Source: a virus | Lineage: Duplodnaviria; Heunggongvirae; Uroviricota; Caudoviricetes | Length of the DNA: 64,000 bases | Virus record (IMG/VR): IMGVR_UViG_3300012933_000236 | Span: 1-64,000 of that record | Direction: 5' to 3' (one strand) | In this document: in pieces, positions 2,761 to 63,454 of the stretch | How positions within the stretch are numbered: position 1 is the stretch's first letter | Layout of the letters: every line of letters starts with the position of its first letter | The notes under the pieces: generated by a model | Database searches by the model: none | Seen by the model: the letters and a program-made list of their open reading frames with translations, nothing else | Told to the model about the DNA's origin: nothing | Translations under genes and position numbers: made by a program

Positions 2761-2816
2761 TTTTCTTCGCTTTTCCAAATAAATCCACGATAAGATTGGT
2801 TGTACCCAAATGTCAA

Positions 2817-2841
2817 GAGTAAAAAAGAGGGCCGAAGCCCC
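2817..2841 (-). terminator. rho-independent terminator downstream of the primase-helicase gene
   Basis: Minus-strand GGGGGCTTCGGCCCTC hairpin followed by TTTTTT. Confidence 0.5.
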
Positions 2842-2845
2842 CTTG

Positions 2846-4588
2846 TTAAAATCCCGAATTATTCTCTGCAAGCCACTCATCCAAGTTGTGTAATGTATGA
2901 GTGTCGTTATCATAGTAGACGTTACCTGCTGGTCCTGTCAATCCACAAATACGATTCTTACTTAGTACAACCTTGGTAGTGTTGCGTTCAGTTGGGTCTT
3001 CTGCATATTTATTTCTACTTAGCAAAATGTTAGCTGAAGCTGACTTAATGATAGTAGAGCTACCTTGAATTTCTTCTTCAGTGAATGAACCACCTTGTGA
3101 AGAATTCTGTACACCAGAAGCTGACTTACGAACATGATTGATAAAGATCAGTGTTACGTTGTGACTCTTGATGATACCTTTGGACCACTTCATGAATAAC
3201 GCTTGGTCTTCATTGGATAGTCCATCTAAGATATCTTGCAAAGGATCAAGCACGATAATTCTGCAACCGCATGATACAACAAGCTCTTCTACTGTATCTT
3301 GAATCTCTTCGATTGTACCATCACGGTTATCGAGTAGATAGAAACGATGTTGACCATCTTCATTATAGAAAAGCTCGTTTGCCTTCTCACGTACTTTATC
3401 AGACTCCAACAAGTCTTTCTTAGCTTCATCATCTTGAATCAACGAGATTTTACGGCTAAGGTGTCTACCTAATAGTGTTTCACCATACTGACCAGAATCT
3501 AACTCCATTGAAACAATACCGATTTTATGTGGTGAGTTAAAAATCCAATGATAAACCATTTCGTTAACAAAGGATGTTTTACCAAGACCAGTACCTGCAG
3601 CAATGTTGATGATGTGTCCCAAAGGTAAACCACCTACAAGCATTTCATTCAATGTATTCATGAAGTGCGGAAACGGTACTTTTGGTACAGTAGCTTGAGC
3701 TAGAATCTTATCATACAGTTCACCACTACCTAATACACCAACAGGAGTATATCGTTTAGCTTCATAGAAGTTACGAATAAATTCATCTTGCTTACCTTCT
3801 TCAAGATAAGTATTTGGATCTTTATACCGCATGTGCATAACTTTAACTTTACCTTTTGGTAAAGCTTTAACTACGTCTTCTGTAGCTTCTTTACCAGCTT
3901 TGTCATTGTCATAACAAACAACAATTTGATCGAAGCTATCGAAAAAGCGATATTGTGCTGCAATTTGTTTATGTGAGTTAGCACCTGTAGTTGGACTAAC
4001 AACAGCCATTTCATACTCACCACCACGAGATTTATTGTATTCAGCAAACATCTGATATGCAGACAGTGCATCAAGTTCACCTTCTGTAATTAGAACATAC
4101 TTACCACCTCGATTAAACTTAAACTGCATAAACAGTTCGCAATCAGCACCAGTGCGACCTTTAGAATAAAAGTTCTTTGGTACTTCACGGATTTTGTATC
4201 CTACGATTTGACCATCTTGTGTAGCTGGATAGTATTGCTCTTCAACATCACCATTATCATCGTAAGAATATCGCACACCAAAAGGTTTGGTAGTTTCATC
4301 TTTAAGTCCACGAAAATCTTTACCACCTACACCAGTTAAAGATTTAATCTTTGTATTTTCTTCTGCAGTTAGTGCAGGTTTACCGCTTGGTTTAACTTCC
4401 ATACTTTTTTCTTCCTTTGATGTTGATGATTTTACTTTGGATTTCTTGTTGGAATTTTGTTCCTTGAATTCATCCGAAGGTACAGTATGCTCACAGACAA
4501 AGCAGTGCGTGGACTTATCCTCATACACTGCTCTACCATCAGATGAACCACACTCGTCACAATTGATGTGTTTAATAAATGCTGCCAA
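2846..4588 (-). CDS. bifunctional DNA primase/helicase (T7 gp4-like: zinc ribbon, TOPRIM, DnaB-family helicase)
   Basis: 580 aa. N-terminal CDECGSS...CFVCEH zinc ribbon, TOPRIM-like ITEGELDALS, Walker A GTGLGKTSF, Walker B IIVLDP. Confidence 0.9.
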   Translation of the reverse strand: MAAFIKHINCDECGSSDGRAVYEDKSTHCFVCEHTVPSDEFKEQNSNKKSKVKSSTSKEEKSMEVKPSGKPALTAEENTKIKSLTGVGGKDFRGLKDETTKPFGVRYSYDDNGDVEEQYYPATQDGQIVGYKIREVPKNFYSKGRTGADCELFMQFKFNRGGKYVLITEGELDALSAYQMFAEYNKSRGGEYEMAVVSPTTGANSHKQIAAQYRFFDSFDQIVVCYDNDKAGKEATEDVVKALPKGKVKVMHMRYKDPNTYLEEGKQDEFIRNFYEAKRYTPVGVLGSGELYDKILAQATVPKVPFPHFMNTLNEMLVGGLPLGHIINIAAGTGLGKTSFVNEMVYHWIFNSPHKIGIVSMELDSGQYGETLLGRHLSRKISLIQDDEAKKDLLESDKVREKANELFYNEDGQHRFYLLDNRDGTIEEIQDTVEELVVSCGCRIIVLDPLQDILDGLSNEDQALFMKWSKGIIKSHNVTLIFINHVRKSASGVQNSSQGGSFTEEEIQGSSTIIKSASANILLSRNKYAEDPTERNTTKVVLSKNRICGLTGPAGNVYYDNDTHTLHNLDEWLAENNSGF

Positions 4589-5895: not shown

Positions 5896-6798
5896 TCATA
5901 GATCATCCTTGTGTCGAATGCCAACCAGTACTGGAAAGCGTGGGACATTATATCCTGTGCCAACGTCAAAGTACTTAACCTTTGCAAGTTGACCCATCAG
6001 TGATTCTCTGCGTTCCCACAAGTCTATACGAATAGCATCAGTCATACCACTGCCACAACTGAACGTATCGCCTTTAGAGGTACGTAGAATCAACGATCCC
6101 ATTGTATCTAGGGCTACCATACCTTCTTTAGCTGTAGAGCGTTCTGTGCGTCCTAGCTCGTTGGTCTTTGCTTCATTGGTGTTGGTGTACTTAGGCTCCC
6201 AACCAATGATTTCAAATTCATTATCTACAAAGCGTTTGACCTTCTGTAGTTCTGGATTCTTAGTGCCAGATCGACCGCATTTATATTTAGCATCTGAGTC
6301 ACGAAGCATGATACCTTCAGCACCTTGAGCAAGCATGTCAACTTCAAAGTCATCAATGTCTACCATTTCTTCTACAGGAAAGTGCTGAAGTACTTCTACT
6401 CGCAATGGCAAACGATCATCACGATCTAAGTTAACTAAATAAGCATAACGCTCCAACCAAGTAGATGTAGGATGGAAGCGGTCAAACACCCAAAATGTAA
6501 AATCAGGTTCACCTTCGATACGCATAACTCCAGAAGTACTTTGGTTGAACACATCAGGTGCATTCTTATTACCAACGATAAGTTCACCATCTGTACCTTC
6601 AAGGATTTCATGATTGGTTTTTACATAAGCTTGAATAAACTTATTTGGAATTGGTTTAAGACTACGTGAGTAAGCTACACCACCAAATACAATACAGCGA
6701 ATACCGTCAAGTTTTTCTGACATGTACATGTTCGCTGGTTGTGTTTTAACTTTGGTTTGCTCAATAGCTAATTGTGGACGAAAATCAGTCGGAATCAT
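5896..6798 (-). CDS. ATP-dependent DNA ligase (small T7/Chlorella-virus type)
   Basis: 300 aa. Motif I SEKLDGIR, EGIMLRD, motif V KVKRF, OB-fold C-terminus. Confidence 0.8.
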   Translation of the reverse strand: MIPTDFRPQLAIEQTKVKTQPANMYMSEKLDGIRCIVFGGVAYSRSLKPIPNKFIQAYVKTNHEILEGTDGELIVGNKNAPDVFNQSTSGVMRIEGEPDFTFWVFDRFHPTSTWLERYAYLVNLDRDDRLPLRVEVLQHFPVEEMVDIDDFEVDMLAQGAEGIMLRDSDAKYKCGRSGTKNPELQKVKRFVDNEFEIIGWEPKYTNTNEAKTNELGRTERSTAKEGMVALDTMGSLILRTSKGDTFSCGSGMTDAIRIDLWERRESLMGQLAKVKYFDVGTGYNVPRFPVLVGIRHKDDL

Positions 6799-8759: not shown

Positions 8760-9029
8760 TCATGTGTTATTCATTTCTCGGATAGCTGCAGCGCACTCAA
8801 AAGCCATAGCATCACGCGCATTACTGTATTCATCTGGAAAATCTAGTTCTGGACCAGCATGTGCTTCACAAATCTTTGCATCAATCTCACGCTGGTCAGC
8901 ACGTACAAGGGCTTCAAAGGCTTTGATTGCCTTATGTGTGGTCACAAAAGTGTTGGACTTTTCAATGGTCCATTCTGTGCAACCAACATAAACGCGAGCT
9001 TCTTTCGCAATTTCTATCGTGTCTCTCAT
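8760..9029 (-). CDS. hypothetical protein
   Basis: 89-aa ORF. ATGA start/stop overlap with a 48-aa Zn-ribbon-like ORF (about 9026-9172, C..C...C..C). Confidence 0.45.
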   Translation of the reverse strand: MRDTIEIAKEARVYVGCTEWTIEKSNTFVTTHKAIKAFEALVRADQREIDAKICEAHAGPELDFPDEYSNARDAMAFECAAAIREMNNT

Positions 9030-9173
9030 TTGGTTTCTCCTTTAAGTTTAACTGCTGAAATTTGTCTGCACTTTGAACACTGAAGCCAATACTCTTTGTA
9101 CTTATATCCCTTCTCGTTAAAAAACCATTTGTGCTTGCAATCAACAATTTCAACAAAACGTAAAATGCTCATA

Positions 9174-9830
9174 TTACCAACCCTCCATAGGATACTCAAG
9201 ATAAACTTGAACTTGACTACGAATTTCGTTAGTTATATTCTTCACACGATCAGTTTTACGACTAATCCTCGCAAACCAACGCCAACCGTTCTTTGCTGCT
9301 TTTACACCTTGATGAAATGTACGATCATCAAACTGATATAGAAAACCACTTGTTGCTTTGTACAAAGAAAGGTTATGTTCTCTTACAGCTTGTTCTACTT
9401 GAGGATGCCAAACTTTATAGATATTGTTCTCTGGAATGTCTAATTCAATAAAACCCAAAGCGAATTCTGTAGGTGCAACTTCTGCATTCACTAAACCCAT
9501 CAAATGCTCTGAGCGATACTCAGGGTTTATATAATTGGGTTGACCATTCGGTGTACTACGTGGTACATCGTCATGATGCCAACCGGGAATACAGGGATAC
9601 CAACCTTTCATGAGCATGTGACTGCGTGTATCAATTACTGCATCTGCGGTCCAATCTTCTGGTAAAGAATCCATGAATGCTTGAGTAATAGGACCAGAGT
9701 GATCATATGCAAAATCTAAACTGCAATTAAAGAACATTGGTTCATTTTTAATTTCTTCATCTGTGAAAACACTATTGAAGCCAGCACCACGTAACTGAAT
9801 ACTTGATTCAATATTAACGTACTTTGTCAT
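9174..9830 (-). CDS. hypothetical protein, possible 2OG-Fe(II) oxygenase-like
   Basis: 218 aa. WHHDD (HxD), a distal FHQG histidine and RWFARIS (RxS-like) have the spacing of 2OG oxygenases. Weak. Confidence 0.35.
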   Translation of the reverse strand: MTKYVNIESSIQLRGAGFNSVFTDEEIKNEPMFFNCSLDFAYDHSGPITQAFMDSLPEDWTADAVIDTRSHMLMKGWYPCIPGWHHDDVPRSTPNGQPNYINPEYRSEHLMGLVNAEVAPTEFALGFIELDIPENNIYKVWHPQVEQAVREHNLSLYKATSGFLYQFDDRTFHQGVKAAKNGWRWFARISRKTDRVKNITNEIRSQVQVYLEYPMEGW

Positions 9831-9884
9831 TTCTATCCTTTCAAATCTCCAAACAATAAAAGGAGAGCCGAAGCTCTCCGTATG

Positions 9885-10682
9885 TTACTTAACGTTAATC
9901 ATTCCCTTGAAGTCCATTGGTACAACAATCGTATTCACACGACCTGCTGCAATGCCTTCTGCAATCTTCATTTGTGCCTGTGCTTGCATATAAGCAATTG
10001 ACTGACCAGAGTTAGAACTTAGTGCAGCCATGCGCTCAGATTCTTTCTTAGCGATATCAACTTCAGTTTGCTTAATCTTTAGTTCATTTTGAGCACGAAC
10101 ATAGTTTGTAGCAGACTGCAAAATTTCAGCGTTAGGTAGAATGTTACGCACTTGCACTACCGTCAATGATACAGAATTGTCCAGCTTTTCAGCTTTGAGT
10201 TGTTCGTGTACTGTATCACGAATTTGCTCTTCAATCTTAGCACGATTGTCTGCAATTTCAAGTGATTTATACTGACGAATAACTTTGTAACTTGCATTAT
10301 TGACCAATGTTGACATGTACGAATACATCAAGAAGATATCACCTTTTTCTTCAGCGTGAAAGCTACGACTCTTAGTTGAGTACAGTTCAGCAACTGAAGT
10401 AGGATTCAAACCGTAGACAACTGTAATATCGAAGTCTGCAAGAGCACTATTGTCTGCAGTCATTGGTGTTTTATTGTCAAGAGTAACAGAGATATCTTTT
10501 GTAGGAAATGTAAGTACAGAACCAATCATTGTCTGATTCCATGAACCGGGAGGTAGCTCAGAACCTTCGATTTGCTTTGATGCGTTGACTCGTACACCAA
10601 CTTCACCAGTTTCAATGCGAGTGCAACCTACAGATGCAAGTGCAACAACTACAGCAAGAACAACACTTTTAATAAATTTCAT
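9885..10682 (-). CDS. SPFH/band-7 (stomatin/prohibitin-like) domain lipoprotein
   Basis: Real start is MKFIKSVVLAVVVALASVGC (signal peptide plus lipobox) with RBS AGGAG. TGEVGVRV opens an SPFH-like domain, followed by a C-terminal coiled coil. The upstream part of the listed ORF is not coding. Confidence 0.6.
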   Translation of the reverse strand: MKFIKSVVLAVVVALASVGCTRIETGEVGVRVNASKQIEGSELPPGSWNQTMIGSVLTFPTKDISVTLDNKTPMTADNSALADFDITVVYGLNPTSVAELYSTKSRSFHAEEKGDIFLMYSYMSTLVNNASYKVIRQYKSLEIADNRAKIEEQIRDTVHEQLKAEKLDNSVSLTVVQVRNILPNAEILQSATNYVRAQNELKIKQTEVDIAKKESERMAALSSNSGQSIAYMQAQAQMKIAEGIAAGRVNTIVVPMDFKGMINVK

Positions 10683-10696
10683 AAATACTCCTTTGA

Positions 10697-10873
10697 TTAA
10701 AACAAAATAACAATTGCAGTCAGAATTGACAATGCAATGAACCCGAAGAACAGCAAGTATAGCACAGTTTTCACCGCTTTCCACTTTGCAGATGCATCTG
10801 ACTCTTTAAAAAAGAAAAATACTCCTGCTACAATCAGTGTTACTAATGATAGCACAAAAATTAGTTTGATCAT
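10697..10873 (-). CDS. small hydrophobic membrane protein (58 aa, two TM helices)
   Basis: MIKLIFVLSLVTLIVAGVFFFFKESDASAKWKAVKTVLYLLFFGFIALSILTAIVILF. ATGA overlap with the upstream gene; not in the ORF track (<60 aa). Confidence 0.45.
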   Translation of the reverse strand: MIKLIFVLSLVTLIVAGVFFFFKESDASAKWKAVKTVLYLLFFGFIALSILTAIVILF

Positions 10874-11817
10874 GAGTTATTATCCTTGAGTTTGGCTTCT
10901 TGCATATCCAACAGTACCAGCAACTGCGCGTCAGATCGAACACGACCGCCAATCCCTTTGGCATCGCTAATTAAGTCCAGCTTCGCATCATCTGTCAGCC
11001 CAACCCATTGCCGCTGTGCTGCGGGTGGGTCGGTGTAGAGCTTCATTCCGGCAATAGGCAGCTGCGTCCAAAGCACGAATACGCCCTCTCCAGTCCGTTT
11101 TGCTTTAACCGTTCCAACAGGCTCCTGCACAGGTGCTGGCTGATAGCTAACGTGATGCTTAATTGCATGGTCTTTTCCTTTGCCCAAATACGCACCGCAG
11201 TCAAACGCATCAGGCTCCTGCACAGGTGTTGGCTGTGCTGCGGGTGGGGTGTAAATGGCGCGAAGCCCATCGCATGTTTCGTCAACTTGAGCTTTTGACG
11301 GTGCGCGAGAAAGTACGCCAAACCCTAGATGTTCCAAGACTTCGCATATGGCAACGTATGCGGCTGCTTGTTGCGTCAGCGGTTCCTGCACAGGTGCTGG
11401 CTGTGCTGCGGGTGGGGTGCTTAACTTTTCAGAATGAATGATTCCTTTATGCAAAACACCATCCCATTCCTCTTCAGTTGCCACGGGCTGCTGCTCTAAC
11501 TGCTCATCCATCGCATACAGCTTCATGTGTTTGTCACCCTCCAGCTTCATCAAAATACCTATGGGTTCCAGCATCCCCTGCATAGGTACTGTATGTTTTG
11601 CAATCGCTGCAACAAGTTCAGCTTTATCTTCTGCACTCCAATTTGCCATTTCCGATGTAATTGGTCCTGCACTGAGAACTGGTACTGCTTTTAACTCAGC
11701 TTCCAACCGATCATTACGCGCACGTAACAAACGATTCTCTTGCTCTAGTTCATCAATGGCTTCATTATAACCAGTCTGATAACCTTCATTATAACCAACT
11801 GAATATTCTTCACTCAT
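10870..11817 (-). CDS. GC-rich hypothetical protein with N-terminal coiled coil and P/Q-rich internal repeats (PPAAQPxPVQEP, four copies)
   Basis: 315 aa. Nucleotide repeat CCTGCACAGGTGCTGGCTGTGCTGCGGGTGGGG at about 11010, 11120, 11213 and 11380. GC content is far above the flanking DNA. Confidence 0.6.
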   Translation of the reverse strand: MSEEYSVGYNEGYQTGYNEAIDELEQENRLLRARNDRLEAELKAVPVLSAGPITSEMANWSAEDKAELVAAIAKHTVPMQGMLEPIGILMKLEGDKHMKLYAMDEQLEQQPVATEEEWDGVLHKGIIHSEKLSTPPAAQPAPVQEPLTQQAAAYVAICEVLEHLGFGVLSRAPSKAQVDETCDGLRAIYTPPAAQPTPVQEPDAFDCGAYLGKGKDHAIKHHVSYQPAPVQEPVGTVKAKRTGEGVFVLWTQLPIAGMKLYTDPPAAQRQWVGLTDDAKLDLISDAKGIGGRVRSDAQLLVLLDMQEAKLKDNNS

Positions 11818-11976
11818 AGCTTCTCCATCTTAATATTCTTGAGAGTAGGACTCTTACGCATTTGCATCAGATGCCAGCTTGCACTTTTATCATCACAAGC
11901 GTAAGAACGAGATGAAATTGTACCATCGTTTTTAACTTCTTGCCATGTCAGACGAATATTTTTAATGTCTGTTTTC

Positions 11977-12357
11977 TTAAAATTCTTCACGTATTCTATC
12001 CTCTGGTTTAACTGCGGTAAATCGGTTCTTGATCATGTGCCAAGCTTCATAGTTGATTTGCATTGTAGCAGACAAATCACGAAAAGCTAAATTTTTAATC
12101 TTAATTACATCATATTTTTGACCACCAGTGTTAAGTTGCCAATGCGTACTGTTTTCTGCACAATCTAATGCTTCCTCGTGTGTATACTCAGGTACTCTTT
12201 TCATTTTACACAAAGAAAACTTTGTCTGCTTGATATAGTAATGATAATAATTCTTTTTAGTTTGCTCTTTAGCTTTCTCCAGAGATATCAAATATTCATC
12301 ACAAAGCTCAAATACAATATCTGCAGGAACTTCGGTTGTAACTTCTGCTTTACTCAT
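11977..12357 (-). CDS. hypothetical protein
   Basis: 126-aa ORF. Confidence 0.5.
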   Translation of the reverse strand: MSKAEVTTEVPADIVFELCDEYLISLEKAKEQTKKNYYHYYIKQTKFSLCKMKRVPEYTHEEALDCAENSTHWQLNTGGQKYDVIKIKNLAFRDLSATMQINYEAWHMIKNRFTAVKPEDRIREEF

Positions 12358-12602
12358 GATCCCATCCCTTCAGATGCCATTGGTTTATAGATTGTGTTGC
12401 GAGTAATGATTGTACCATCATCTAGCACCTTTTGAACAACAGATGTTTGCACATCATAGCAATTACCTAATCTTGGATGACCGATGATGTATCGCAAACC
12501 AGCTACAGGATAACGCACATCATCATTCCAGTTATAGAACTGCGGTACACCGATATAGTATACTGTAGCTTTATCATTGATTGTTGTATTCATTTCATTC
12601 AT
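12354..12602 (-). CDS. hypothetical protein (first gene of the leftward transcription unit)
   Basis: 82-aa ORF, RBS GGAGTAA. Confidence 0.5.
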   Translation of the reverse strand: MNEMNTTINDKATVYYIGVPQFYNWNDDVRYPVAGLRYIIGHPRLGNCYDVQTSVVQKVLDDGTIITRNTIYKPMASEGMGS

Positions 12603-12868
12603 TTGATTACTCCTTTACCTTGTGTTTAAACTTGTGCTTAACTGCAGTTATAACTTAAGTTATACTTAAATTGAAACTGAGTTTTTGAAACTTGAGCTTG
12701 TCAACTCTCGCTTGTCCCTCTGCTGCCCCTGACCCCTGAAGCGAATTCTACACACATCAACAACTCTTGTCAAGCCCTATCTGCAAAAATAATTTTAAAA
12801 TATTTGTTGTGTTGTGCAAAAAGTTGTGCTACAGTCAAACCTTCACTCAACAACCGAAAGGAAACAAC
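12603..12868. promoter_or_regulatory. divergent intergenic switch region between the leftward replication block and the rightward early block
   Basis: 266 nt non-coding. Minus-strand TTGACA at 12701-12706, plus-strand TGTGCTACAGT extended -10 at 12825-12835, RBS GAAAGGAAAC before the ATG at 12869. Confidence 0.45.
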
Positions 12869-13294
12869 ATGCTACTCAAAACTGAATTTCATCACATGGT
12901 CAACCATCTAGGTCTAGAAGACGGTGAACTGGCACTAGCTGAAATCGTGTGGGAGAAAGCGGAGCGAGCAATGCAAGGTAAACCTGTGCAAGAAGCTAAG
13001 TTGCTAAAGAGCGATACTTTTACTCGTAGCACTGATAAGTATGCATTGACTCAAGCTGAACTGCAATCTCTCACTGTAGGTTTAGCATATGTGCTTACAC
13101 ACGAACAAGAAGTATTGCAGAACTTGAAGCATCGAATTGATAACTGCTGGCGCAAAAGTGAACCTGACAATGCAGATACAGAAGTGCATTTCACACGAAT
13201 GAATGAACTACGAAATCATCAGCGTAAGATCAAGAAAGATCACGCAAAGCTTTCAGTCATCCAATATAAACTCAAACGCCAACAAGGTAAATAA
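12869..13294 (+). CDS. hypothetical early protein
   Basis: Start moved to MLLKTEFHH after a GGAAAC RBS; 141 aa. Confidence 0.5.
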   Translation: MLLKTEFHHMVNHLGLEDGELALAEIVWEKAERAMQGKPVQEAKLLKSDTFTRSTDKYALTQAELQSLTVGLAYVLTHEQEVLQNLKHRIDNCWRKSEPDNADTEVHFTRMNELRNHQRKIKKDHAKLSVIQYKLKRQQGK

Positions 13295-13638
13295 TGACAC
13301 GTAAACGCTATGAAATCATCGCTACAGCCTTCGATAAGAAAGGTAAGGTGCTAGGTACAGGAGTTAATGATTACAACCGCAGTCATCCACTTATGAAGCA
13401 TTTTGCTGTGCAAGCTGGAGAGTCAGAGCAAAAAGATAAAGTCCACGCTGAACTATCTGCTGTACTGGCATCTGGTCGTAAAAATATTCATAGCGTTTTC
13501 GTTCAGCGGTTTCACAACGATGGTTCAATGGCTACTGCTAAACCATGCATGACTTGCCAAGCTATGCTCAAAGGCTTTGGTGTTAAACTTGTTCGTTATA
13601 CATCTGAAGAAGGAATTAAAGAATATGAAGTTTTATAA
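13294..13638 (+). CDS. small cytidine/dCMP-deaminase-fold (CDA) zinc-dependent deaminase, TadA-like motifs
   Basis: 114 aa. VHAELSAV (H[AC]E) and PCMTCQAM (PCxxC) are separated by about 30 aa. Confidence 0.6.
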   Translation: MTRKRYEIIATAFDKKGKVLGTGVNDYNRSHPLMKHFAVQAGESEQKDKVHAELSAVLASGRKNIHSVFVQRFHNDGSMATAKPCMTCQAMLKGFGVKLVRYTSEEGIKEYEVL

Positions 13639-13882
13639 TCCGTTTAAACCGCACATCGTGCAGCTTTCTAATGGTAAATATGCTGTGCGTAGATGGTCTT
13701 TGCTTGCATGGGAATACAAAGAAAGTTGGACACTTCCGGGTACTGATTATTATTGGTGGAATTCTATGGAACATGTTCAGAAATGGTGTACAGTTAAATC
13801 TCTTGAAGAAGCTAAAGCATTATGTGGTGAGTCCAAATCTAAACTTAAACCTATGAAAGTGGTAAAGGTAATTCATGGCTAA
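13625..13882 (+). CDS. hypothetical protein
   Basis: Likely start MKFYNPFKP, overlapping the upstream gene end. Confidence 0.45.
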   Translation: MKFYNPFKPHIVQLSNGKYAVRRWSLLAWEYKESWTLPGTDYYWWNSMEHVQKWCTVKSLEEAKALCGESKSKLKPMKVVKVIHG

Positions 13883-14387
13883 TCAAAAAGACCTTGATGC
13901 AACATACATGGGTACTGCCATATTGCACAGCAAGTTATCTAAGGCCATTAGAGCACAGGTAGGAGCGATTCTAGTGACTAGGCAAGGTGTCACCCTCACT
14001 GGTTACAATGGGACTGCTGTAGATCGTCCTAATGAATGCGAAGATCGTATTTATCCAAATGAATACGCTGGTGATTTTCAACAACACTATGATGAATTTG
14101 ATGCTGCATTTCCATTTGTGGATTCTCGTGGGTATTACTGTAAGTTAGTTACAAAACCAGAAGTGATTCATGCAGAACTTAACTGCATTATGAAAGCTGC
14201 TCGTGAAGGTGTAAGTTGCGTAGATGCTACTGTTTATGTTACACTAGCACCTTGTGTACAGTGCGCTGCTATGATGCTACAAGCTGGTGTCAAGCGCGTG
14301 GTATATCTGCAACAGTACAGAGATGATTCTGGTGTAAAGCTGCTGCAGGAATCAAATGTAGTGGTACAATTGTACGATCAACTTTAA
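13875..14387 (+). CDS. dCMP deaminase (deoxycytidylate deaminase)
   Basis: 170 aa. VIHAELNCI and LAPCVQCAAMMLQAGVKRVVY match the ComEB/T4 Cd pattern. Confidence 0.85.
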   Translation: MANQKDLDATYMGTAILHSKLSKAIRAQVGAILVTRQGVTLTGYNGTAVDRPNECEDRIYPNEYAGDFQQHYDEFDAAFPFVDSRGYYCKLVTKPEVIHAELNCIMKAAREGVSCVDATVYVTLAPCVQCAAMMLQAGVKRVVYLQQYRDDSGVKLLQESNVVVQLYDQL

Positions 14388-18877: not shown

Positions 18878-19546
18878 ATGCAAAAGATTGAAGATTACAC
18901 CACCGCAAAGCTAATTGCTTACTCACAGGCTACAGAAGAGTTTAAAGGGCAGTTTAAGACCATTAAAGACCTTGTAGCATACTGCGCTAGGGTAAGTAAC
19001 CCAAGCAACCAACTCAACATGGAAACCTCTGATAAACTCATTAGTTATCTACTGAAGCACAAGCATTTTAGTCCATTTGAAATGGCTAGTGCAACTATTG
19101 AAGTTGAAACAACTCGTGACATTGCTCGTCAGCTATTACGTCATCGTAGTTTTACATTTCAGGAGTTTAGCCAGCGTTATGCAGACCCTACAAAGGATTT
19201 GACGTTTGTAACTCGTGAAGCACGACTGCAAGACCCTAAGAATCGTCAGAACTCTGTTATTACTGAAAATCTTGCATTGCAATCGCTATGGGAGAACTAT
19301 CAGAACAAAGTAATTCAGACTGCACAAGATGCGTATGCTTTTGCTATTGCTAACGGTATCGCCAAAGAGCAAGCTCGTGCTGTACTACCAGAAGGTTGCA
19401 CAATGTCTCGTTTATATGTTCAAGGAACTATCCGTAGTTTTATTCACTACATTGAAGTGCGTAAGACTAATGGTACACAACTAGAACACGTTGTATTGGC
19501 ACAAAAAGCTGCAGAAGCTATCTCAAAGGTTTTCAATGTTGAATGA
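18878..19546 (+). CDS. thyX: flavin-dependent thymidylate synthase ThyX
   Basis: 222 aa. RHRSFTFQEFSQRY matches the ThyX RHR-x7-S signature. Confidence 0.9.
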   Translation: MQKIEDYTTAKLIAYSQATEEFKGQFKTIKDLVAYCARVSNPSNQLNMETSDKLISYLLKHKHFSPFEMASATIEVETTRDIARQLLRHRSFTFQEFSQRYADPTKDLTFVTREARLQDPKNRQNSVITENLALQSLWENYQNKVIQTAQDAYAFAIANGIAKEQARAVLPEGCTMSRLYVQGTIRSFIHYIEVRKTNGTQLEHVVLAQKAAEAISKVFNVE

Positions 19547-22181: not shown

Positions 22182-22358
22182 ATGAAACAACAAACATGCC
22201 TAATGTGCGATAAACCTGCAGATTGGATTCGTGGTACTCAGTTTGCAGGTGATCATCCGTTTTGTGAAGAACACGCAAGACAAGAGAGAGGATTTGGCAT
22301 CAACGATTCATATGAATATTGGTATAAAGTTAAGAAAGAAAATGATGCAACTTCTTAA
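22182..22358 (+). CDS. small Cys-rich protein
   Basis: MKQQTCLMCDKP...CEEHARQ; start moved from the listed ORF. Confidence 0.4.
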   Translation: MKQQTCLMCDKPADWIRGTQFAGDHPFCEEHARQERGFGINDSYEYWYKVKKENDATS

Positions 22359-22899
22359 ACGCTGGTCAATGTACATCGCAATCTTTATTGTTGCTATGTT
22401 TCTTACAGATCAATATCGAGAGTATCGTCAGCTACAGGAGCTTGAAGCTGTACGTCAAGATTTGATTAGGCAAGAGAAGGAAGCTGAAAAGAACTGCCTT
22501 AAGAACGCTTTGTGGTATGAAGCAGGTAATCAATCGCTATACGGTATTGAAGCTGTAGCTGCAGTGATTCACAACCGTAAGATTCATCCTGATTACCCTA
22601 GTACATACTGTGGTGTAATTAATCAACGCAGTCAATTTAGCTATACATTGCTAGGAAAACCTGATGTTGAAATCATCAAGGCTAACTTTAGACCAATGGA
22701 AGTAAAAGCTTATGCTAAAGTTGAAGAAGTAGCTGAAAGAGTCATGTCGGAAGAATTCAAACCTGTGTTAGAATCTTCAGTGCGTTTCTATGCAACAAAG
22801 CAGATTAAAAACTACTGGACCAAAACCAAGAAAGTAGCTGCTAGAATTGGTGATCATGTGTTCTATAAAGATAAGGAGAAATCTAATGACAAACGCTAA
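22342..22899 (+). CDS. cell-wall hydrolase, SleB/Hydrolase_2 family, with N-terminal signal-anchor helix (candidate endolysin)
   Basis: Start at MMQLLKRWSMYIAIFIVAMFL (TM helix). NALWYEAGNQSLYGIEAVAAVIHNRKIHPDYPSTYCGVINQRSQFS matches the SleB core. Confidence 0.65.
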   Translation: MMQLLKRWSMYIAIFIVAMFLTDQYREYRQLQELEAVRQDLIRQEKEAEKNCLKNALWYEAGNQSLYGIEAVAAVIHNRKIHPDYPSTYCGVINQRSQFSYTLLGKPDVEIIKANFRPMEVKAYAKVEEVAERVMSEEFKPVLESSVRFYATKQIKNYWTKTKKVAARIGDHVFYKDKEKSNDKR

Positions 22900-36186: not shown

Positions 36187-36261
36187 GCTGGAATAGCTCA
36201 TCTGGTAGAGCAACGGTTTTGTACTCCGTAGAGGTGGGTTCGAGTCCTACTTCTAGCACCA
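36187..36261 (+). tRNA. tRNA-Thr(TGT): tRNA-Thr (anticodon TGT)
   Basis: GCTGGAA acceptor, TAGCTCATCTGGTAGAGC D-arm, anticodon loop TTTGTAC, T-arm GTGGG-TTCGAGT-CCTAC, encoded CCA. Confidence 0.75.
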
Positions 36262-36268
36262 AATTTAA

Positions 36269-36343
36269 GCTACTATCGTCTATCGGTTAGGACATCTGGT
36301 TTTCATCCAGACAAGCGGAGTTCGATTCTCCGTAGTAGCTCCA
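36269..36343 (+). tRNA. tRNA-Glu(TTC): tRNA-Glu (anticodon TTC)
   Basis: GCTACTA/TAGTAGC acceptor, anticodon arm TCTGG-TTTTCAT-CCAGA, T-arm CGGAG-TTCGATT-CTCCG, CCA. Confidence 0.75.
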
Positions 36344-36512
36344 GTATTTACTAAAGTCCAGTGGGTCAAATCCCCGTCCTCTGAGTATTGCCCAATGCTT
36401 GGCGGTGGTGTAGAGAAACACATTAGTATTTACGTGTAATCCGCAACTACGTTAAAAGTTCGGCTGCTCAATCGCCAACGGAAAGAGCATAAGGTTACAG
36501 TTGGATAAATTT

Positions 36513-36587
36513 TGGCATATAGCTCAGAGGTAGAGCAAACGGCTGTTAACCGTTCGGTCTGTGGTTCGATCCCACATTTGCCAGCCA
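36513..36587 (+). tRNA. tRNA-Asn(GTT): tRNA-Asn (anticodon GTT)
   Basis: D-arm GCTCAGAGGTAGAGC, anticodon arm AACGG-CTGTTAA-CCGTT, T-arm TGTGG-TTCGATC-CCACA, CCA. One T-T mismatch in the acceptor stem. Confidence 0.65.
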
Positions 36588-36593
36588 ATCAAT

Positions 36594-36671
36594 CTATATA
36601 TAGGCTAGTCTGGTTAAGTCACCTGATTTGGGGTCAGGAAGTCGGTGGTTCGAATCCATCTATATAGACCA
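36594..36671 (+). tRNA. tRNA-Pro(TGG): tRNA-Pro (anticodon TGG)
   Basis: CTATATA/TATATAG acceptor, anticodon arm CCTGA-TTTGGGG-TCAGG, T-arm GGTGG-TTCGAAT-CCATC, CCA. Confidence 0.7.
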
Positions 36672-36678
36672 TATATTT

Positions 36679-36754
36679 ATATCTCTAGCTCAACTGGCAG
36701 AGCAACGGATTCCAAATCCGTAGGTTGTAGGTTCGATTCCTACGGGGTATGCCA
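36679..36754 (+). tRNA. tRNA-Trp(CCA): tRNA-Trp (anticodon CCA)
   Basis: D-arm GCTCAACTGGCAGAGC, anticodon arm ACGGA-TTCCAAA-TCCGT, T-arm GTAGG-TTCGATT-CCTAC, CCA. Acceptor has two G-U pairs. Confidence 0.7.
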
Positions 36755-37569: not shown

Positions 37570-39039
37570 ATGTCAGAACAAATAACGATTGCACCAGCTT
37601 CTAAAAAGCAAGAGATGTTTTTAAATAGTCCAGCAACTATTACATTAGCAGGTGGTGCTGCAGGTTCTGGTAAAACATACACATCATTACTCATTGCATT
37701 GAAGTTCATGCAGCACCCTAGAGCAACGGGTGTAATCTTTCGTAGAACTTCTAAGATGCTTACTGCTCCCGGTTCAATCTGGCATGAAGCAGTGCATTTA
37801 TACACAAGTCTTTATCCAAACCTAAGAATCCGAAGTAGAGAACTTGAGTTAGTGTTCCCAAATGGAGCATTACTTAAATTCAGTCATATGCAACACGCAA
37901 CTAACATGTATGATCACAAAGGTGGTCAGTACTCATTGGTTATTTTCGATGAAGCAACTGATTTTGAAGAAGAAATGGTAGTATACCTTCTTTCTCGCAT
38001 GCGTAACGCTTATGTTGATTATAAACCACAGATGTTTATGATGACTAACCCTGATTACAATTCCTTCTTACGATCATGGATTGAAGATTACTATCTTGAT
38101 GCAAATACAGGTATTCCTTTACCAGAAAAAACTGGTCATCAGCGTTATTTCTTTCGTCAAGGTAACACAATGCTTTGGTACGATAGTTTAGAGCAAGCCG
38201 AAGCTGCTCATGGTGCTGGTAACGAATCAGGTATTTCATCTTTTACCTTTATTGGTGCTACTTGTCGAGATAACCCTCCGCTACTCAAAGCACAACCAGA
38301 TTATATCAGTAGATTGATGTCTTTACCAAGAGTAGAGAAAGAAAGATTACTTGATGGTTCATGGTTTGCTCGTCAGGAGTCTGCTGGTTTATTTAAGCGC
38401 GAATGGGTCGGTTTAGTTGATCACGCAAACGGTAGAGCAAGAAAAAGAATCAGAGCTTGGGACTTTGCTTTCAGTAAACCTTCTGAACAATATCCAAATC
38501 CTGACTGGTCAAGAGGTGTTCTAATCTCTAAAGACCCACATAATTTATATACAGTAGAAGATGTAGTATCCATTAGAGATAGAGTGCATGAAGTAGAAAA
38601 GCTAGTATTCGATACTGCTTTACAAGATGGTCAAGACGTAACAATTAGCATTCCGCTAGACCCCGCTGCAGCCGCTGGCGCTTATGCCAAAGACTTACAG
38701 CGCAAGTTAGCTGAAATGGGTTTCAACGTAAGATTAACAAAGCCTGTTAAATCAAAGATTACTCGCTTTGCACCTTTTTCAAGTATAGCACAAGCTGGTT
38801 TCGTAAACGTAGTAAAAGCTAATTGGAATAAAGATTTCTTTGACGAATTAGAAGTCTTCGATGGTGATCCAAAGAAAAAAGACGACCAAGTTGACTGCTG
38901 CTCAGATGCAATGCTTTTATTAAATAAAGATACACAATTGCCGCAATTTACTCTACCAGATTTTACAGGTACTAGTCCATTTGATGGAAGTGTATCAGGT
39001 TTTAATATCCCTACTTTTAATAGTTCATTAGTTTCATAA
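37570..39039 (+). CDS. terminase large subunit
   Basis: 489 aa. Walker A LAGGAAGSGKTY, Walker B LVIFDEATDF, and a C-terminal nuclease-domain acidic residue pattern. Confidence 0.9.
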   Translation: MSEQITIAPASKKQEMFLNSPATITLAGGAAGSGKTYTSLLIALKFMQHPRATGVIFRRTSKMLTAPGSIWHEAVHLYTSLYPNLRIRSRELELVFPNGALLKFSHMQHATNMYDHKGGQYSLVIFDEATDFEEEMVVYLLSRMRNAYVDYKPQMFMMTNPDYNSFLRSWIEDYYLDANTGIPLPEKTGHQRYFFRQGNTMLWYDSLEQAEAAHGAGNESGISSFTFIGATCRDNPPLLKAQPDYISRLMSLPRVEKERLLDGSWFARQESAGLFKREWVGLVDHANGRARKRIRAWDFAFSKPSEQYPNPDWSRGVLISKDPHNLYTVEDVVSIRDRVHEVEKLVFDTALQDGQDVTISIPLDPAAAAGAYAKDLQRKLAEMGFNVRLTKPVKSKITRFAPFSSIAQAGFVNVVKANWNKDFFDELEVFDGDPKKKDDQVDCCSDAMLLLNKDTQLPQFTLPDFTGTSPFDGSVSGFNIPTFNSSLVS

Positions 39040-49082: not shown

Positions 49083-50096
49083 ATGCAAACTCGTAGTTTT
49101 GAAAAACCATTTGAACTAGTCGATTACACAGAAGAACTACTCTTAGTTCCTAATAAGTGGGGCTTGATCAATGAATTAGGTCTATTCGGTGAAGAAGGCG
49201 TAGCTCAACACAGCGTTACCGTTGAATCCAGCGAAGGTACTCTCGGTCTAGTTACCGACAAAATCCGTGGTGAGCGTAACAACGTAGCTAAGAGCGACAC
49301 ACGCGCTTTACGTTCATTCGCCATTCCACACTTTCCAATGGATGATGCAGTTAAGCCTGAAGATGTCCAAGGTAAACGTGCTTATGGTTCTGCTGATCAA
49401 GCTGAAACCGAAGCTGCTGTTATCGCTCGTAAACTAGAGCGTATCCGCATGAACCACTCAGTAACTCTAGAAGCTGCTCGTGCCTATGCAATTACTGTTG
49501 GTGCTATCTACGCTCCTAACGGTACTGTAGCTGGTAACTTCTACACTGATTTCGGTATCACACGTAAGTCTATTGACTTCGTACTCGGTACTTCCACTAC
49601 TGACCTAAACGCTAAGTCAGAAGAAGGTATTGCTCACATTCAGGACACAATCCAGAGTGGTGAAGTTGTTAGCAACATTATCGTACTATGCTCTCCAGCA
49701 TTCTTCGCTAAGTTGATTAACCACGCTACCGTCAAAGAAGCTTACAAGTACTACACAAGCACTCAAGAGCCTCTACGTAACCGTCTAGGTTCTGGTGTAT
49801 ATCGCCGTTTCGTACACGGTGGTGTTGAGTACATCGAATACCGTGGTTCTTACAATGGTACTGCTCTAATCCCTGCTGGTGAAGCTTACATGCTACCACA
49901 AGGTACTTCTGACATGTTCAAGACTTACTTTAGCCCTGCTAACAAGTTCTCACATGTTAACACCATTGGTGAGCAAGCTTATGTATTCACTTACAAAGAC
50001 CCTAAAGACAGCGAAATTCAGATTCAATCAGAAGCTAACTTCTTGAACTTGATTCGCCGCCCACAAGCTGTTGTTCAATTGACAACTTCTAACTGA
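49083..50096 (+). CDS. major capsid protein (lambda gpE-like family)
   Basis: 337 aa, high-expression codon usage, followed by tandem terminator hairpins. Confidence 0.75.
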   Translation: MQTRSFEKPFELVDYTEELLLVPNKWGLINELGLFGEEGVAQHSVTVESSEGTLGLVTDKIRGERNNVAKSDTRALRSFAIPHFPMDDAVKPEDVQGKRAYGSADQAETEAAVIARKLERIRMNHSVTLEAARAYAITVGAIYAPNGTVAGNFYTDFGITRKSIDFVLGTSTTDLNAKSEEGIAHIQDTIQSGEVVSNIIVLCSPAFFAKLINHATVKEAYKYYTSTQEPLRNRLGSGVYRRFVHGGVEYIEYRGSYNGTALIPAGEAYMLPQGTSDMFKTYFSPANKFSHVNTIGEQAYVFTYKDPKDSEIQIQSEANFLNLIRRPQAVVQLTTSN

Positions 50097-61474: not shown

Positions 61475-63454
61475 ATGACAGCAAGAAATATATTAATGGC
61501 TGCAGCGGGGGGTTCTACTGACGCTAATTATATTGAGGATGTGTTCTCGACTTGGCTTTACACAGGCAACGGCTCTACACAGACAATCACCAACGGGATT
61601 GATCTGGCAGGTAAGGGTGGGTTGGTATGGTTGAAAGATCGATCAGGTGCGAGTATTAATCAGCATACGTGGGTTGACACGAATCGTGGCGTAAATAACT
61701 GGATTAATTCAGCAAGCACATTTGAGCAATCACCTAGTAACATTCTGTCTTCTTACAACGCAACTGGTTTTACTCTTTCGGATAGTGTACGCAGCAACCA
61801 ATCAGGTGCTTCCTATGTGGGATGGACATTCCGCAAGCAGCCAAAGTTCTTTGATGTTGTGACGTATACGGGGAATGGGACAGCAGGGCGTCAAATTGCG
61901 CATAACTTAGGATCAGAACCCGGTTGCATCATTTTCAAACGAACCGACAGCACAAGCGATTGGGCTGTGTATCACCGAGGTTTAAATGGTGGATCAGGGC
62001 CAGAGGACTACAAGATATTCCTAAACACGACCGCTGCACAAGCAAGCGGTGCACCATACGTTATCAGCACACTTGACTCAACAACCTTCACTCTTGGTAG
62101 CGATGGTTCTGGTGGTGGCTCTACGCTCACCAACGTGAACGGAGCAACTTACGTAGCCTACCTATTCGCCCACAACGCAGGAGGCTTTGGCCTGACGGGT
62201 ACGGACAATGTGATTTCGTGTGGGTCGTTTATGACTGATGGGTCTGGTAATGCTACGGTTGATCTTGGGTATGAACCACAGTGGTTAATGATGAAAGGTA
62301 CTACAGCGGGGCAACCGTGGTGGCAAGTTAACAATATGGCTGGTTTTGTTGCTGCTCCCGGCACAACAACCAGATATTTGGCTGCAAATTCAACAGATGC
62401 TGAAAATAGCTGGGGAAGTGTTATGGCCCCAACAGCAACAGGTTTTGTAACAACAGGCCTTGCAAGTTCCACCATCTACATCTACATCGCCATACGCCGT
62501 GGCCCGATGAAAGTGCCTACTGATGGGACTAAGGTGTTTAATGTTGTGTCCCAGACACCAAGCGGCACAACCACAGTTACCAATTCTTTTGCGTCTGACA
62601 TGGTGCTTTCTTGTCAGCGGTCTAACGGCGGTGGTTGGGGTTTTAACGTAGCGGACAAGCTGCGGGGCTCTTCTATCCCCAGCGGGTCACCTTATCTGAC
62701 AACGCCAACAACAGCAGCAGAGGGCAACTTCTCTGGCTACGGCTTTAATTTAACTAACACAGACATCCAAGAAAACTTCTGGAACGTGGCGCTAGGTGTT
62801 TCAACACCCGTTGTATACGACGTATTCCAACGTGCTCCCGGCTTTTTTGATGAGGTTTGCTATACGGCCACAGGAGCAAACCTAAACGTGGCACACAACC
62901 TGCAAGCCGTGCCTGAGTTGATGATTGTAAAAGCTAGGAGTTCTGCTGGCTGGAATTGGACTGTGTACGCTGCTCCGCAAGGCGCAACAAAACGTGGGTA
63001 TCTTAATAGTACTAATAATTTTGGTACGTCAGCTTTGATGTGGAATAACACAGCACCAACATCTACTGTATTTACGGTGGGCGCAGGTGATGATACAAAC
63101 CCGTCTGCGGGCGTAACAATGGTGGCCTACCTCTTTGCCACATGCCCCGGCGTGAGCAAGGTCGGTAGCTACACAGGCACAGGCACAACTCAGACCATCA
63201 ACTGTGGCTTTACGGGTGGGGCGAGATTTGTACTCATCAAAGCTGCCAGCACCACAGGTAATTGGTATGTATGGGACAGCGCACGGGGCATCGTAGTGGG
63301 TAATGATCCATACCTAGTGCTCAACAGCACTGCTGCCGAAGTCACAACAACCGATTGGGTTGACACTGCCGCAACAGGATTTGAACTCAGCAACGCTGGT
63401 GGCAATTTGGCTAACAGTACTGGTGTCACATACCTCTTTTTAGCTATCGCATAA
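61475..63454 (+). CDS. tail fibre / receptor-binding protein with three internal repeat modules; GC-rich relative to the genome
   Basis: 659 aa. Repeats ...IIFKRTDSTSDWAVYHRGL / ...MIVKARSSAGWNWTVYAAPQG / ...VLIKAASTTGNWYVWDSARG. GC content visibly higher than neighbours. Confidence 0.6.
   Translation: MTARNILMAAAGGSTDANYIEDVFSTWLYTGNGSTQTITNGIDLAGKGGLVWLKDRSGASINQHTWVDTNRGVNNWINSASTFEQSPSNILSSYNATGFTLSDSVRSNQSGASYVGWTFRKQPKFFDVVTYTGNGTAGRQIAHNLGSEPGCIIFKRTDSTSDWAVYHRGLNGGSGPEDYKIFLNTTAAQASGAPYVISTLDSTTFTLGSDGSGGGSTLTNVNGATYVAYLFAHNAGGFGLTGTDNVISCGSFMTDGSGNATVDLGYEPQWLMMKGTTAGQPWWQVNNMAGFVAAPGTTTRYLAANSTDAENSWGSVMAPTATGFVTTGLASSTIYIYIAIRRGPMKVPTDGTKVFNVVSQTPSGTTTVTNSFASDMVLSCQRSNGGGWGFNVADKLRGSSIPSGSPYLTTPTTAAEGNFSGYGFNLTNTDIQENFWNVALGVSTPVVYDVFQRAPGFFDEVCYTATGANLNVAHNLQAVPELMIVKARSSAGWNWTVYAAPQGATKRGYLNSTNNFGTSALMWNNTAPTSTVFTVGAGDDTNPSAGVTMVAYLFATCPGVSKVGSYTGTGTTQTINCGFTGGARFVLIKAASTTGNWYVWDSARGIVVGNDPYLVLNSTAAEVTTTDWVDTAATGFELSNAGGNLANSTGVTYLFLAIA

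Follow-up and report, generated by a model that had tools for sequence, protein, structure and literature searches.

A phage-specific gene pair for an SPFH lipoprotein and a 58-residue membrane hairpin, adjoined by a mosaic repeat gene

What use does a tailed phage have for an SPFH-domain protein, and which of the genes beside it belong to the same system? The question is raised by a locus in IMG/VR virus record IMGVR_UViG_3300012933_000236, of which we analyzed positions 1 to 64,000 (hereafter, the window). SPFH proteins are universal membrane scaffolds whose functions in bacteria are poorly defined. Open reading frames (ORFs) of this kind were noted in T4-like phages in 2006 without a function (PMC1524935), and others were annotated in phage PhiSH19 (PMC3220722) and Burkholderia phage CSP3 (PMC10269572), in neither case with a test of function; for Gibbsiella phage GIB1, the reason for an SPFH ORF in a phage genome was said in 2026 to be one that "remains unclear" (PMC13239085). 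An HflK/C-like protein of a Pasteurella multocida prophage has been studied only as an immunostimulatory virulence factor on outer-membrane vesicles (PMC9872710). The literature that we found on phage SPFH proteins consisted of annotations and speculation, with no tested function, and nowhere in it were a conserved hairpin partner or a difference between the phage and chromosomal forms described. A preliminary description of the window had grouped three co-directional genes, encoding a coiled-coil repeat protein, a 58-residue peptide and an SPFH lipoprotein, into one membrane module. All three ORFs are present on the minus strand at the positions given for them (Table 1). The hairpin peptide and the SPFH lipoprotein are a conserved, phage-specific two-gene cassette, and the repeat protein is a neighbor of this cassette, not a component of it.

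The SPFH lipoprotein and its small partner

The SPFH protein matched the Pfam Band_7 profile (PF01145) with an E-value of 7e-18 and 65.7 bits against a cut-off of 23.6, the match spanning residues 22-214 of the protein and positions 2-175 of the 176 in the profile. No other ORF in the window matched Band_7, and the protein also matched PHROG 200 "lipoprotein" (E=2.9e-34). Mechanical gene calling gave a 299-residue ORF beginning with GTG; the true initiation codon, the ATG at 10682, leaves 265 residues. These are laid out as a signal peptide (1-19), a lipobox cysteine (Cys20, in A-S-V-G-C20; segment MKFIKSVVLAVVVALASVG-C20), an SPFH domain (~20-182), two helices (185-224 and 230-245) and a tail motif, in keeping with the SPFH-domain lipoprotein that had been described. 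The lipobox, which was scored with a regular expression rather than with SignalP or LipoP, was present in 59 of 61 viral homologs examined and in most homologs from bacterial genomes. The SPFH domain begins right behind Cys20 (C-T-R-I-E-T-G-E-V-G-V), a position that would put it flat against the membrane in the manner of SPFH1 in solved cages.

An AlphaFold model based on 38 homologs (predicted local distance difference test [pLDDT] score, 77) shows a 40-residue helix at 185-224 followed by the second helix and the C-terminal tail. When this model was searched with Foldseek, 250-290 columns were aligned to full-length prohibitin, HflK/C, erlin, stomatin and QmcA (E-values of 1e-12 to 6e-8), with HflK/C among the top-ranked structural matches. 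By sequence, the only meaningful relative of the SPFH family profile among solved structures was QmcA (8z5g; E=1e-4). The tail carries the motif NTIVVPMDF (251-259; RVNTIVVPMDF at 249-259), in which V254, P255 and F258 were invariant or nearly so among the 38 homologs. In stomatin, the ORA motif KNSTIVFPL is needed for homo-oligomerization (PMC5456319), and a comparison of the two patterns showed that the phage tail parallels it. Judged from its sequence and predicted structure, the protein holds every feature of cage-forming SPFH proteins. Because this architecture is complete, with SPFH1/2, a long coiled-coil helix, a second helix and a stomatin-type oligomerization motif, the protein most probably oligomerizes as a ring or dome.

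Homologs of the SPFH protein have been named "regulator of protease activity HflC" by the Joint Genome Institute (JGI), and the protein itself had no match to HflK, HflC or any other NCBIfam model. A phmmer search recovered 308 clusters at E<=1e-3 from 1.84 billion cluster representatives, and by sequence comparison the clade is a narrow, divergent and separate one. Searches of PADLOC, NCBIfam and PDB sequences gave zero matches for any of the three proteins, in agreement with the earlier statement that the locus corresponds to no named system.

The 58-residue protein has the two hydrophobic segments (1-25 and 32-58) expected of the double-transmembrane peptide in the preliminary description, together with a loop of 10-13 residues, an M-x-K N-terminus, basic loop residues (K23, K30, K32 and K35) and a C-terminal ...ILF. 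The alignment of its family is nearly gap-free, with the M-x-K/R N-terminus, the basic loop residues and a C-terminal L-F conserved; the loop holds 3.5 K/R on average, and position 3 is also a conserved K/R. A hidden Markov model (HMM) of the family matched the hairpin protein (E=2.3e-20) and nothing else in the window. A comparison with NfeD, which had been proposed as a check, gave a negative answer: Pfam searches at E<=10 found nothing significant for the protein or for eight homologs or analogs, and 58 residues are too few for an OB domain. Nine small partner proteins compared with Pfam and PHROG at permissive E-values likewise had no significant match, including none to NfeD, Imm or holins; for one family member, weak and non-significant PHROG holin matches were seen (E=0.2-0.6).

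A T5-C-T6 tract lies in the hairpin gene where the first transmembrane segment meets the loop (codons FFFFK). In related loci the second run of T is five nucleotides long (L137 and L138) or seven (L141 and L142), which breaks the reading frame, while the SPFH genes of these loci are 93-95% identical. In all, the hairpin gene is frameshifted or truncated in five close relatives whose adjoining SPFH gene is intact. The variation in tract length could be a homopolymer assembly error or genuine slip-strand on/off variation; if the latter, the tract might switch the hairpin partner on and off.

Distribution among phages and bacterial chromosomes

Pairing with the hairpin is a feature of phages. In seven of seven annotated phages inspected (Acinetobacter Obolenskvirus, T4-like, Schitoviridae, At2, phiAB441, and the records annotated as Synechococcus phages BUCT-ZZ01 and S-CREM1), an ORF of 53-92 residues with two transmembrane segments was located immediately upstream of the SPFH homolog on the same strand. 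A strict script found a two-transmembrane upstream ORF in 44 of 61 viral loci; it was exactly 58 residues long in 31 and ended in LF, IF or VF in 40. The family HMM was positive in 55 of the 64 IMG/VR loci that were recovered with the SPFH family alignment, and in each of these the hairpin gene lay upstream of the SPFH gene in the same orientation; only some of these 55 matches are independent, as the HMM was built from many of the same loci. In 49 of the positive loci the hairpin gene ended within ~70 nt of the SPFH match; in the remaining six (L150, L151, L162, L168, L185 and L186), one gene or more than 1 kb lay between the two. The small membrane partner suggested in the preliminary description is thus conserved across phages. 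Partners of the Acinetobacter type (83-93 residues, two transmembrane segments, basic C-terminal tail) were missed by the 58-residue HMM and appear to be analogous to the hairpin in position and topology.

SPFH homologs were detected by tblastn in 32 phage records. The best match from an isolate, ON615601 "Synechococcus phage BUCT-ZZ01", was 47% identical and had a 58-residue hairpin upstream; this phage has a genome of 156 kb and carries a cyanophage annotation, and the region of it that was examined has a guanine plus cytosine (GC) content of 38.7%. Its presence in BUCT-ZZ01 means that the cassette crosses very different phage and host groups. PHROG 200 and the SPFH ORFs of T4-like (44RR, Aeh1, RB43), Vi01-like (PhiSH19), Schitoviridae (GIB1, XC38) and Acinetobacter phages share the family or the architecture, although identity between the window's protein and the Acinetobacter set is only ~30%; in that set the partner is the longer, 83-93-residue protein. 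The cassette was absent from Limnohabitans phage DC31, the nearest isolate, and for this reason we regard it as accessory. In Salmonella phage PhiSH19 (L016, 641-1432), the SPFH protein also has a lipobox (LLSGC), and there is no hairpin gene directly upstream. A PhiSH19 gene annotated "superinfection exclusion protein" upstream of the SPFH gene (PMC3220722) prompted consideration of a T4 Imm-like partner, which was rejected: the product is soluble and acidic, has 106 residues, and is encoded 205 nt away.

A scan of bacterial genomes, one per species, yielded 68 SPFH loci, nearly all from Burkholderiales. Only five of these were positive with the hairpin HMM (L205-L208 and L262), and they fell in phage-like clades. 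The main chromosomal clade (Polaromonas, Rhodoferax, Aquabacterium, Massilia, Undibacterium and others) consists of Comamonadaceae and Oxalobacteraceae sequences with 84-98% mutual identity across genera and 51-55% identity to the window's protein. They are equal to it in length and have the same C-T-R-I-E lipobox junction; unlike the phage protein, they stand alone, with no hairpin detected by the HMM. Their neighbors are housekeeping genes that differ from genus to genus (LldD-like, PBP1C, GspE/F, ABC transporter), which led us to reject the idea that the genomic homologs of this clade are prophage copies. Conservation of an SPFH lipoprotein at this level without synteny, seen in L209-L265 (e.g., L214, Polaromonas aquatica chromosome, 5941-6747), is unusual, and to our knowledge the chromosomal lipoprotein is likewise uncharacterized. 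In a midpoint-rooted neighbor-joining tree, the rooting of which is unreliable, the chromosomal clade nests inside much more diverse phage sequences. A further homolog, 68% identical and from Giesbergeria anulus (L202, 5965-6804), is anchored by an N-terminal transmembrane segment (...FGFHSF-TRIKTGEVGV) where the lipobox would be and lies between genes for a methyl-accepting chemotaxis protein and a GntR-type regulator, in non-phage surroundings. Lipid and helix anchors are therefore interchangeable within this family.

The mosaic repeat gene and the surrounding genome

The repeat gene stands out in base composition, as the preliminary description had recognized. Its GC content is 49.3%, ~3 standard deviations above the window's 37.1% +/- 4.1%, and its 480-nt core (10940-11419) reaches 55.6%, against a maximum of 55.8% (at 10941) for any 480-nt stretch in a sliding scan of the 64 kb. 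The perfect nucleotide repeats of about 33 nt that had been reported were not found; the best pair is 39 nt long with 95% identity (11213-11251 and 11381-11419), and exact repetition extends over no more than 22 nt. Four linkers are present, as claimed, and they are unequal rather than four copies of PPAAQPxPVQEP: they encode PPAAQPAPVQEP, PPAAQPTPVQEP, QPAPVQEP and PPAAQRQWVGLT, i.e., two full versions, one shortened to QPAPVQEP, and one reading PPAAQRQW. The pattern CCNGCNCCNGTNCARGARCC occurred three times where 0.00 occurrences were expected. From its N-terminus, the protein consists of a coiled coil, at least five small modules on P/Q linkers, and a C-terminal ...WVGLTDD...EAKLK module. 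In an AlphaFold model whose confidence did not permit a search by fold (pLDDT, 64; predicted template modeling score, 0.28), only helices 11-44 and 276-314 were confident, and the linkers (pLDDT <50) were disordered.

Homologs numbered 227 at E<=1e-3 and matched piecewise to different metagenomic proteins. The coiled-coil N-terminus matched DC31 gp78 and P0122, residues 78-150 matched P0125 and P0129 at differing positions in those proteins, and the C-terminus matched P0123 and P0131. One segment, by eye probably the 148-190 module, covers 20% of the query and shares 86% identity with P0127, and a short one, probably within 203-225, covers 10% and shares 94% identity with P0134. The protein conforms to a family rule of modules joined by (YT)PPAAQPAPVQEP(VAW) and closed by a C-terminal PPAAQRQWVGLTD...EAKLKEKN module, and many family members end in PPAAQRQWVGLTDEE...EAKLKEKN. 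Members are 170-460 residues long with differing module sets, some including a WDGH domain (PF25311) that the window's protein does not have. A tblastn search of isolated phages returned two weak, partial matches, and a full-text literature search for the linker peptides PAPVQEP, WVGLTD and AKLKEKN found nothing relevant.

The exact linker 20-mer CAGCCAGCACCTGTGCAGGA was found in at least 119 IMG/VR contigs, where an estimated ~0.1 matches would be expected by chance. Identity above ~70% extends from ~5 nt before the 20-mer to 8 nt after it, giving a core of ~35 nt with flanks at background. The median GC content of the contigs (among the at least 119) is 53%, which accounts for an island of high GC in a 37% genome and speaks for horizontal acquisition, as had been suspected from composition and as the mosaic structure and piecewise matches also indicate. 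The gene would have been assembled from small modules by recombination at this GC-rich linker, which is common to many higher-GC phages. A similar arrangement is known from the "His boxes" of T-even tail fibers, conserved motifs at which recombination swaps domains. In both cases a short conserved nucleotide motif recurs within and between genes amid unrelated sequence; unlike the His boxes, the present motif codes for a P/Q-rich linker between domains, and the protein family that contains it is accessory and non-structural. In one related locus (L140; IMGVR_UViG_3300048573_000091, ~2470-2985), a mosaic-family ORF continues in frame, directly past a PVQEPVAW linker, into the part of the hairpin gene that encodes the loop and second transmembrane segment. 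The fusion replaces the first transmembrane segment and looks like recombination at the linker that reached into the adjoining gene.

Whether the repeat protein acts together with the hairpin and the SPFH protein, as a three-gene module would require, can be judged from how regularly it accompanies them. The stop codon of its gene overlaps the hairpin start (ATGA, 10870-10873), and in the closest relatives (L015/L136, L144, L146 and L149) a mosaic-family member occupies the same position. However, a member of the family was found near the SPFH gene in only 6 of the 64 viral loci; an unrelated 81-residue gene intervenes in L010, and an unrelated gene takes the position of the repeat gene in L014. 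In addition, the linker family occurs in the at least 119 viral contigs above, which are unchecked for an SPFH gene, and a separate origin is indicated by its GC content and its shared modules. The low frequency beside SPFH and the other genes in L010 and L014 are the reasons for which we treat the repeat protein as a neighbor, and joint action of the three proteins appears very improbable. Of the translational coupling that had been proposed for all three genes, the ATGA overlap between the repeat and hairpin genes stands, whereas 14 nt, including a separate ribosome-binding site, lie between the hairpin and SPFH genes.

The positions of the features are collected in Table 1. The putative promoter lies in a divergent intergenic region (12603-12766). 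Pfam searches with the three small upstream genes gave no match, and the last of them, a 58-residue ORF, overlaps with its stop the ATG of the repeat gene (ATGA). The terminator-like hairpin at the other end appears in the minimum-free-energy fold, with a z-score of only -1.5 for the whole 56-nt piece. From this layout, the hairpin and SPFH genes look like the distal end of the first leftward operon to be read by the host polymerase. Since the cassette is the last unit of this operon behind a sigma-70-like promoter, it is probably expressed early.

Table 1. Features of the leftward operon, listed from its predicted promoter to its end (positions in the window)
Feature	Position	Strand	Basis or remark
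Sigma-70-like promoter, TTGACA-17-TAGAAT	12745..12773	-	Consensus match, 11/12; head of leftward operon ending with SPFH gene
Three small upstream operon genes (82, 126 and 58 aa)	11814..12602	-	ORFs; conserved in Limnohabitans phage DC31
Mosaic "beads-on-a-string" repeat gene, 315 aa	10870..11817	-	ORF; piecewise homolog matches
GC-rich linker region, four copies	10993..11415	-	Copies at 11380-11415, 11212-11247, 11119-11142 and 10993-11028
Tiny two-transmembrane hairpin gene, 58 aa	10697..10873	-	ORF; family alignment; family HMM
T5-C-T6 homopolymer tract in hairpin gene	10808..10819	-	DNA alignment with L137, L142, L144 and L140
Ribosome-binding site AAAGGAG	10688..10694	-	Direct reading of sequence; 5 nt before SPFH ATG
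SPFH/Band-7 lipoprotein gene, 265 aa	9885..10682	-	Pfam; PHROG; lipobox; model
Intrinsic-terminator-like hairpin, GGAGAGC-UUCG-GCUCUCC plus T tract	9853..9879	-	Directly after SPFH stop

The phage nature of the element, stated in the preliminary description, was confirmed with PHROG profiles, which identified a large terminase (37570-39039), a major head protein (49083-50096), a portal and a tail-fiber protein, as well as a DNA polymerase, primase/helicase, RNA ligase and DNA ligase in the left arm. The source of the window is best explained as a ~77-kb, virulent-looking tailed double-stranded DNA phage of freshwater Burkholderiales, a host assignment that the data on bacterial homologs fit. 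One metagenome contig at JGI, 77,197 bp long, encodes a repeat protein identical over all 315 residues (P0121). When positions 9000-13000 were compared by megablast with 50,697 phage records, DC31 was the sole nucleotide match, with 81.7% identity over query bases 2815-3997 (~11814-12996 in the window), a segment that covers the small upstream genes and excludes the three genes under study; by this comparison, the locus falls in no phage region known so far. A lysogeny module was not noticed in the window, though no systematic scan for one was made.

Several other features of the genome were recorded. There are six tRNA genes, Arg-TCT alone at 336-410 and a cluster of Thr, Glu, Asn, Pro and Trp at 36187-36754, just upstream of the terminase region. 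The tail-fiber gene (61475-63454, plus strand; PHROG tail fiber / virion structural protein) is a second GC-rich island, with 47-51% against the 37% background, which suggests a separately acquired host-range module. A candidate endolysin of the Hydrolase_2/SleB type (22231-22899, plus strand; PF07486, E=4e-18) carries a hydrophobic N-terminal segment (...WSMYIAIFIVAMFL...) and may be of the signal-anchor-release type. At 13294-14387 on the plus strand is a tandem pair of deaminase-like genes, whose counterparts in relatives carry dCMP_cyt_deam_1, and a 222-residue ORF (18878-19546, plus strand) is probably the counterpart of a ThyX/Thy1 gene in relatives. Along with the DNA and RNA ligases, these genes point to an elaborate nucleotide-metabolism or DNA-modification set.

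Possible roles of the cassette

Taken as a whole, the interval is best explained, if only tentatively, as two independent accessory elements, the cassette at 9885-10873 and the mosaic gene at 10870-11817; its anatomy and the identity of its genes are held with high confidence. For the cassette we propose that the SPFH protein would be exported through Sec and lipid-modified at Cys20, placing its SPFH domain on the membrane surface facing the periplasm, where the lipoprotein would oligomerize as a ring or dome. The hairpin would be its integral-membrane partner and would supply the transmembrane helices that the lipoprotein lacks, both proteins presumably residing in the inner membrane. We lean slightly towards a physical association of the two. 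The pay-off may be an early remodeling or shielding of the infected cell's envelope that excludes superinfecting phage genomes, protects the membrane from membrane-targeting abortive-infection effectors, or both. We favor such shielding because the cassette is accessory, located in the envelope, apparently early and spread across virulent phage lineages, a profile that leads us to liken it to the conflict genes imm and sp of T4 and llp of T5. A role in superinfection exclusion or membrane protection is nevertheless doubtful at present, and the complete picture somewhat more so: a two-component membrane organizer, found in several unrelated phage lineages, in which a lipid-anchored SPFH cage and a hairpin "fence" would wall off patches of the inner membrane early in infection, blocking the entry of competing genomes or blunting depolarizing abortive-infection effectors.

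Known systems resemble the cassette in part. The SPFH-NfeD operons, such as E. coli QmcA-YbbJ (PDB 8z5g) and the Pyrococcus stomatin PH1511 with NfeD PH1510, likewise place an SPFH gene beside a small, co-directional membrane-protein gene, and QmcA is both the best profile match among solved structures and a structural match. Unlike in those operons, the partner here is a bare 58-residue hairpin with neither an NfeD (PF01957) nor an OB domain, the phage SPFH protein is predicted to be lipid-anchored and periplasmic where theirs is transmembrane-anchored and cytoplasmic, and the pair is specific to phages. With the exclusion proteins Imm and Spackle of T4, Llp of T5 and SieA of P22, the analogy is one of location and timing only. 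Imm is a small inner-membrane protein with two transmembrane segments and Llp is a lipoprotein, and these are early accessory proteins of the envelope; Pfam and PHROG searches gave no sequence or profile similarity of the cassette to Imm (PF14373), Spackle, Llp or SieA, and we know of no SPFH domain in any characterized exclusion protein.

Several observations weigh against the proposed membrane organizer. The single line of support for a physical link between hairpin and lipoprotein is the adjacency of their genes. Bacterial chromosomal homologs function without any hairpin, and if the frameshifts and truncations are real, the SPFH protein has been kept without its partner in five phage relatives as well. 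The topology of the hairpin is ambiguous, given both a basic loop and a conserved K/R at position 3. In E. coli, a lipoprotein without Asp at +2 goes to the outer membrane; as residues +2 to +4 after the lipobox cysteine are T-R-I, the SPFH lipoprotein could be sorted there, beyond the reach of a 58-residue hairpin in the inner membrane. The early timing derives from a consensus promoter match only, and the cassette had no match to a superinfection-exclusion family in Pfam or PHROG or to a PADLOC model.

Among the alternatives, the one that comes nearest in probability, though we think it unlikely, has the phage protein supplement, replace or poison the host's own SPFH lipoprotein, to the benefit of membrane organization, respiration or proton-motive force and with no role in conflict. 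Comamonadaceae and Oxalobacteraceae chromosomes indeed carry a lipoprotein 51-55% identical to it, with the C-T-R-I-E junction and housekeeping neighbors, and two reports can be counted in favor: HflK/C is reported to regulate aerobic respiration (PMC12005517), and SPFH complexes are reported to form hetero-oligomers (PMC12624060). Yet the patchiness of the cassette among phages and its absence from the nearest isolate are typical of conflict genes rather than metabolic helpers, and the phage version, with a hairpin specific to phages, is more than a plain copy of the host's gene. Transfer may have run in either direction, the chromosomal clade being nested within phage diversity in the midpoint-rooted tree. 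It is less probable still that the assembly imitates HflK/C and encloses or gates host FtsH or another membrane protease from the periplasmic side, thereby stabilizing phage proteins. HflK and HflC are periplasm-facing SPFH proteins with a historical link to phage lambda lysogeny, the phage assembly is predicted to face the periplasm on the inner membrane as well, HflK/C ranked among the top Foldseek matches, and the JGI name of the homologs points the same way; an HflK/C-type idea was also raised for phage CSP3 (PMC10269572). However, there is one SPFH gene instead of a K/C pair, with a lipobox in place of the transmembrane helix and no NCBIfam HflK or HflC match; the closest sequence-profile match is QmcA, the 308 phmmer clusters form a narrow clade apart, and CII, the classical target, is missing, no lysogeny module having been seen in the unsystematically inspected window.

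A function in the timing of lysis, with the hairpin as a class-II-like holin or antiholin that the SPFH lipoprotein corrals to delay or sharpen lysis, is suggested by the size and two-transmembrane topology of the hairpin, which resemble those of small holins, by the weak PHROG holin matches of one family member, and by the fact that SPFH cages sequester membrane proteins. We consider it quite improbable. The endolysin is 11 kb away on the opposite strand and no significant holin match was obtained with Pfam or PHROG, both of which make a lysis role less likely; moreover, the cassette lies in an early, replication-side operon and is also found in T4-like and N4-like phages, which have lysis systems of their own.

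What is new here is that the phage SPFH protein is a lipoprotein with, as predicted, the full cage-forming architecture, and that it travels with a phage-specific 58-residue hairpin which is absent beside the chromosomal homolog. A vague SPFH annotation thereby becomes a defined two-protein system that is directly testable, with culturable Acinetobacter phages and their hosts as suitable material. The repeat gene next to it illustrates domain shuffling via a conserved linker common to more than 100 viral contigs. If the reading of the cassette as a membrane organizer were true, it would mark the first use of an SPFH microdomain scaffold by a virus, as well as the first exclusion or anti-defense mechanism built on SPFH; an exclusion or anti-defense role would represent a new mechanistic class in phage-host conflict and would offer a handle on minimal SPFH assemblies.

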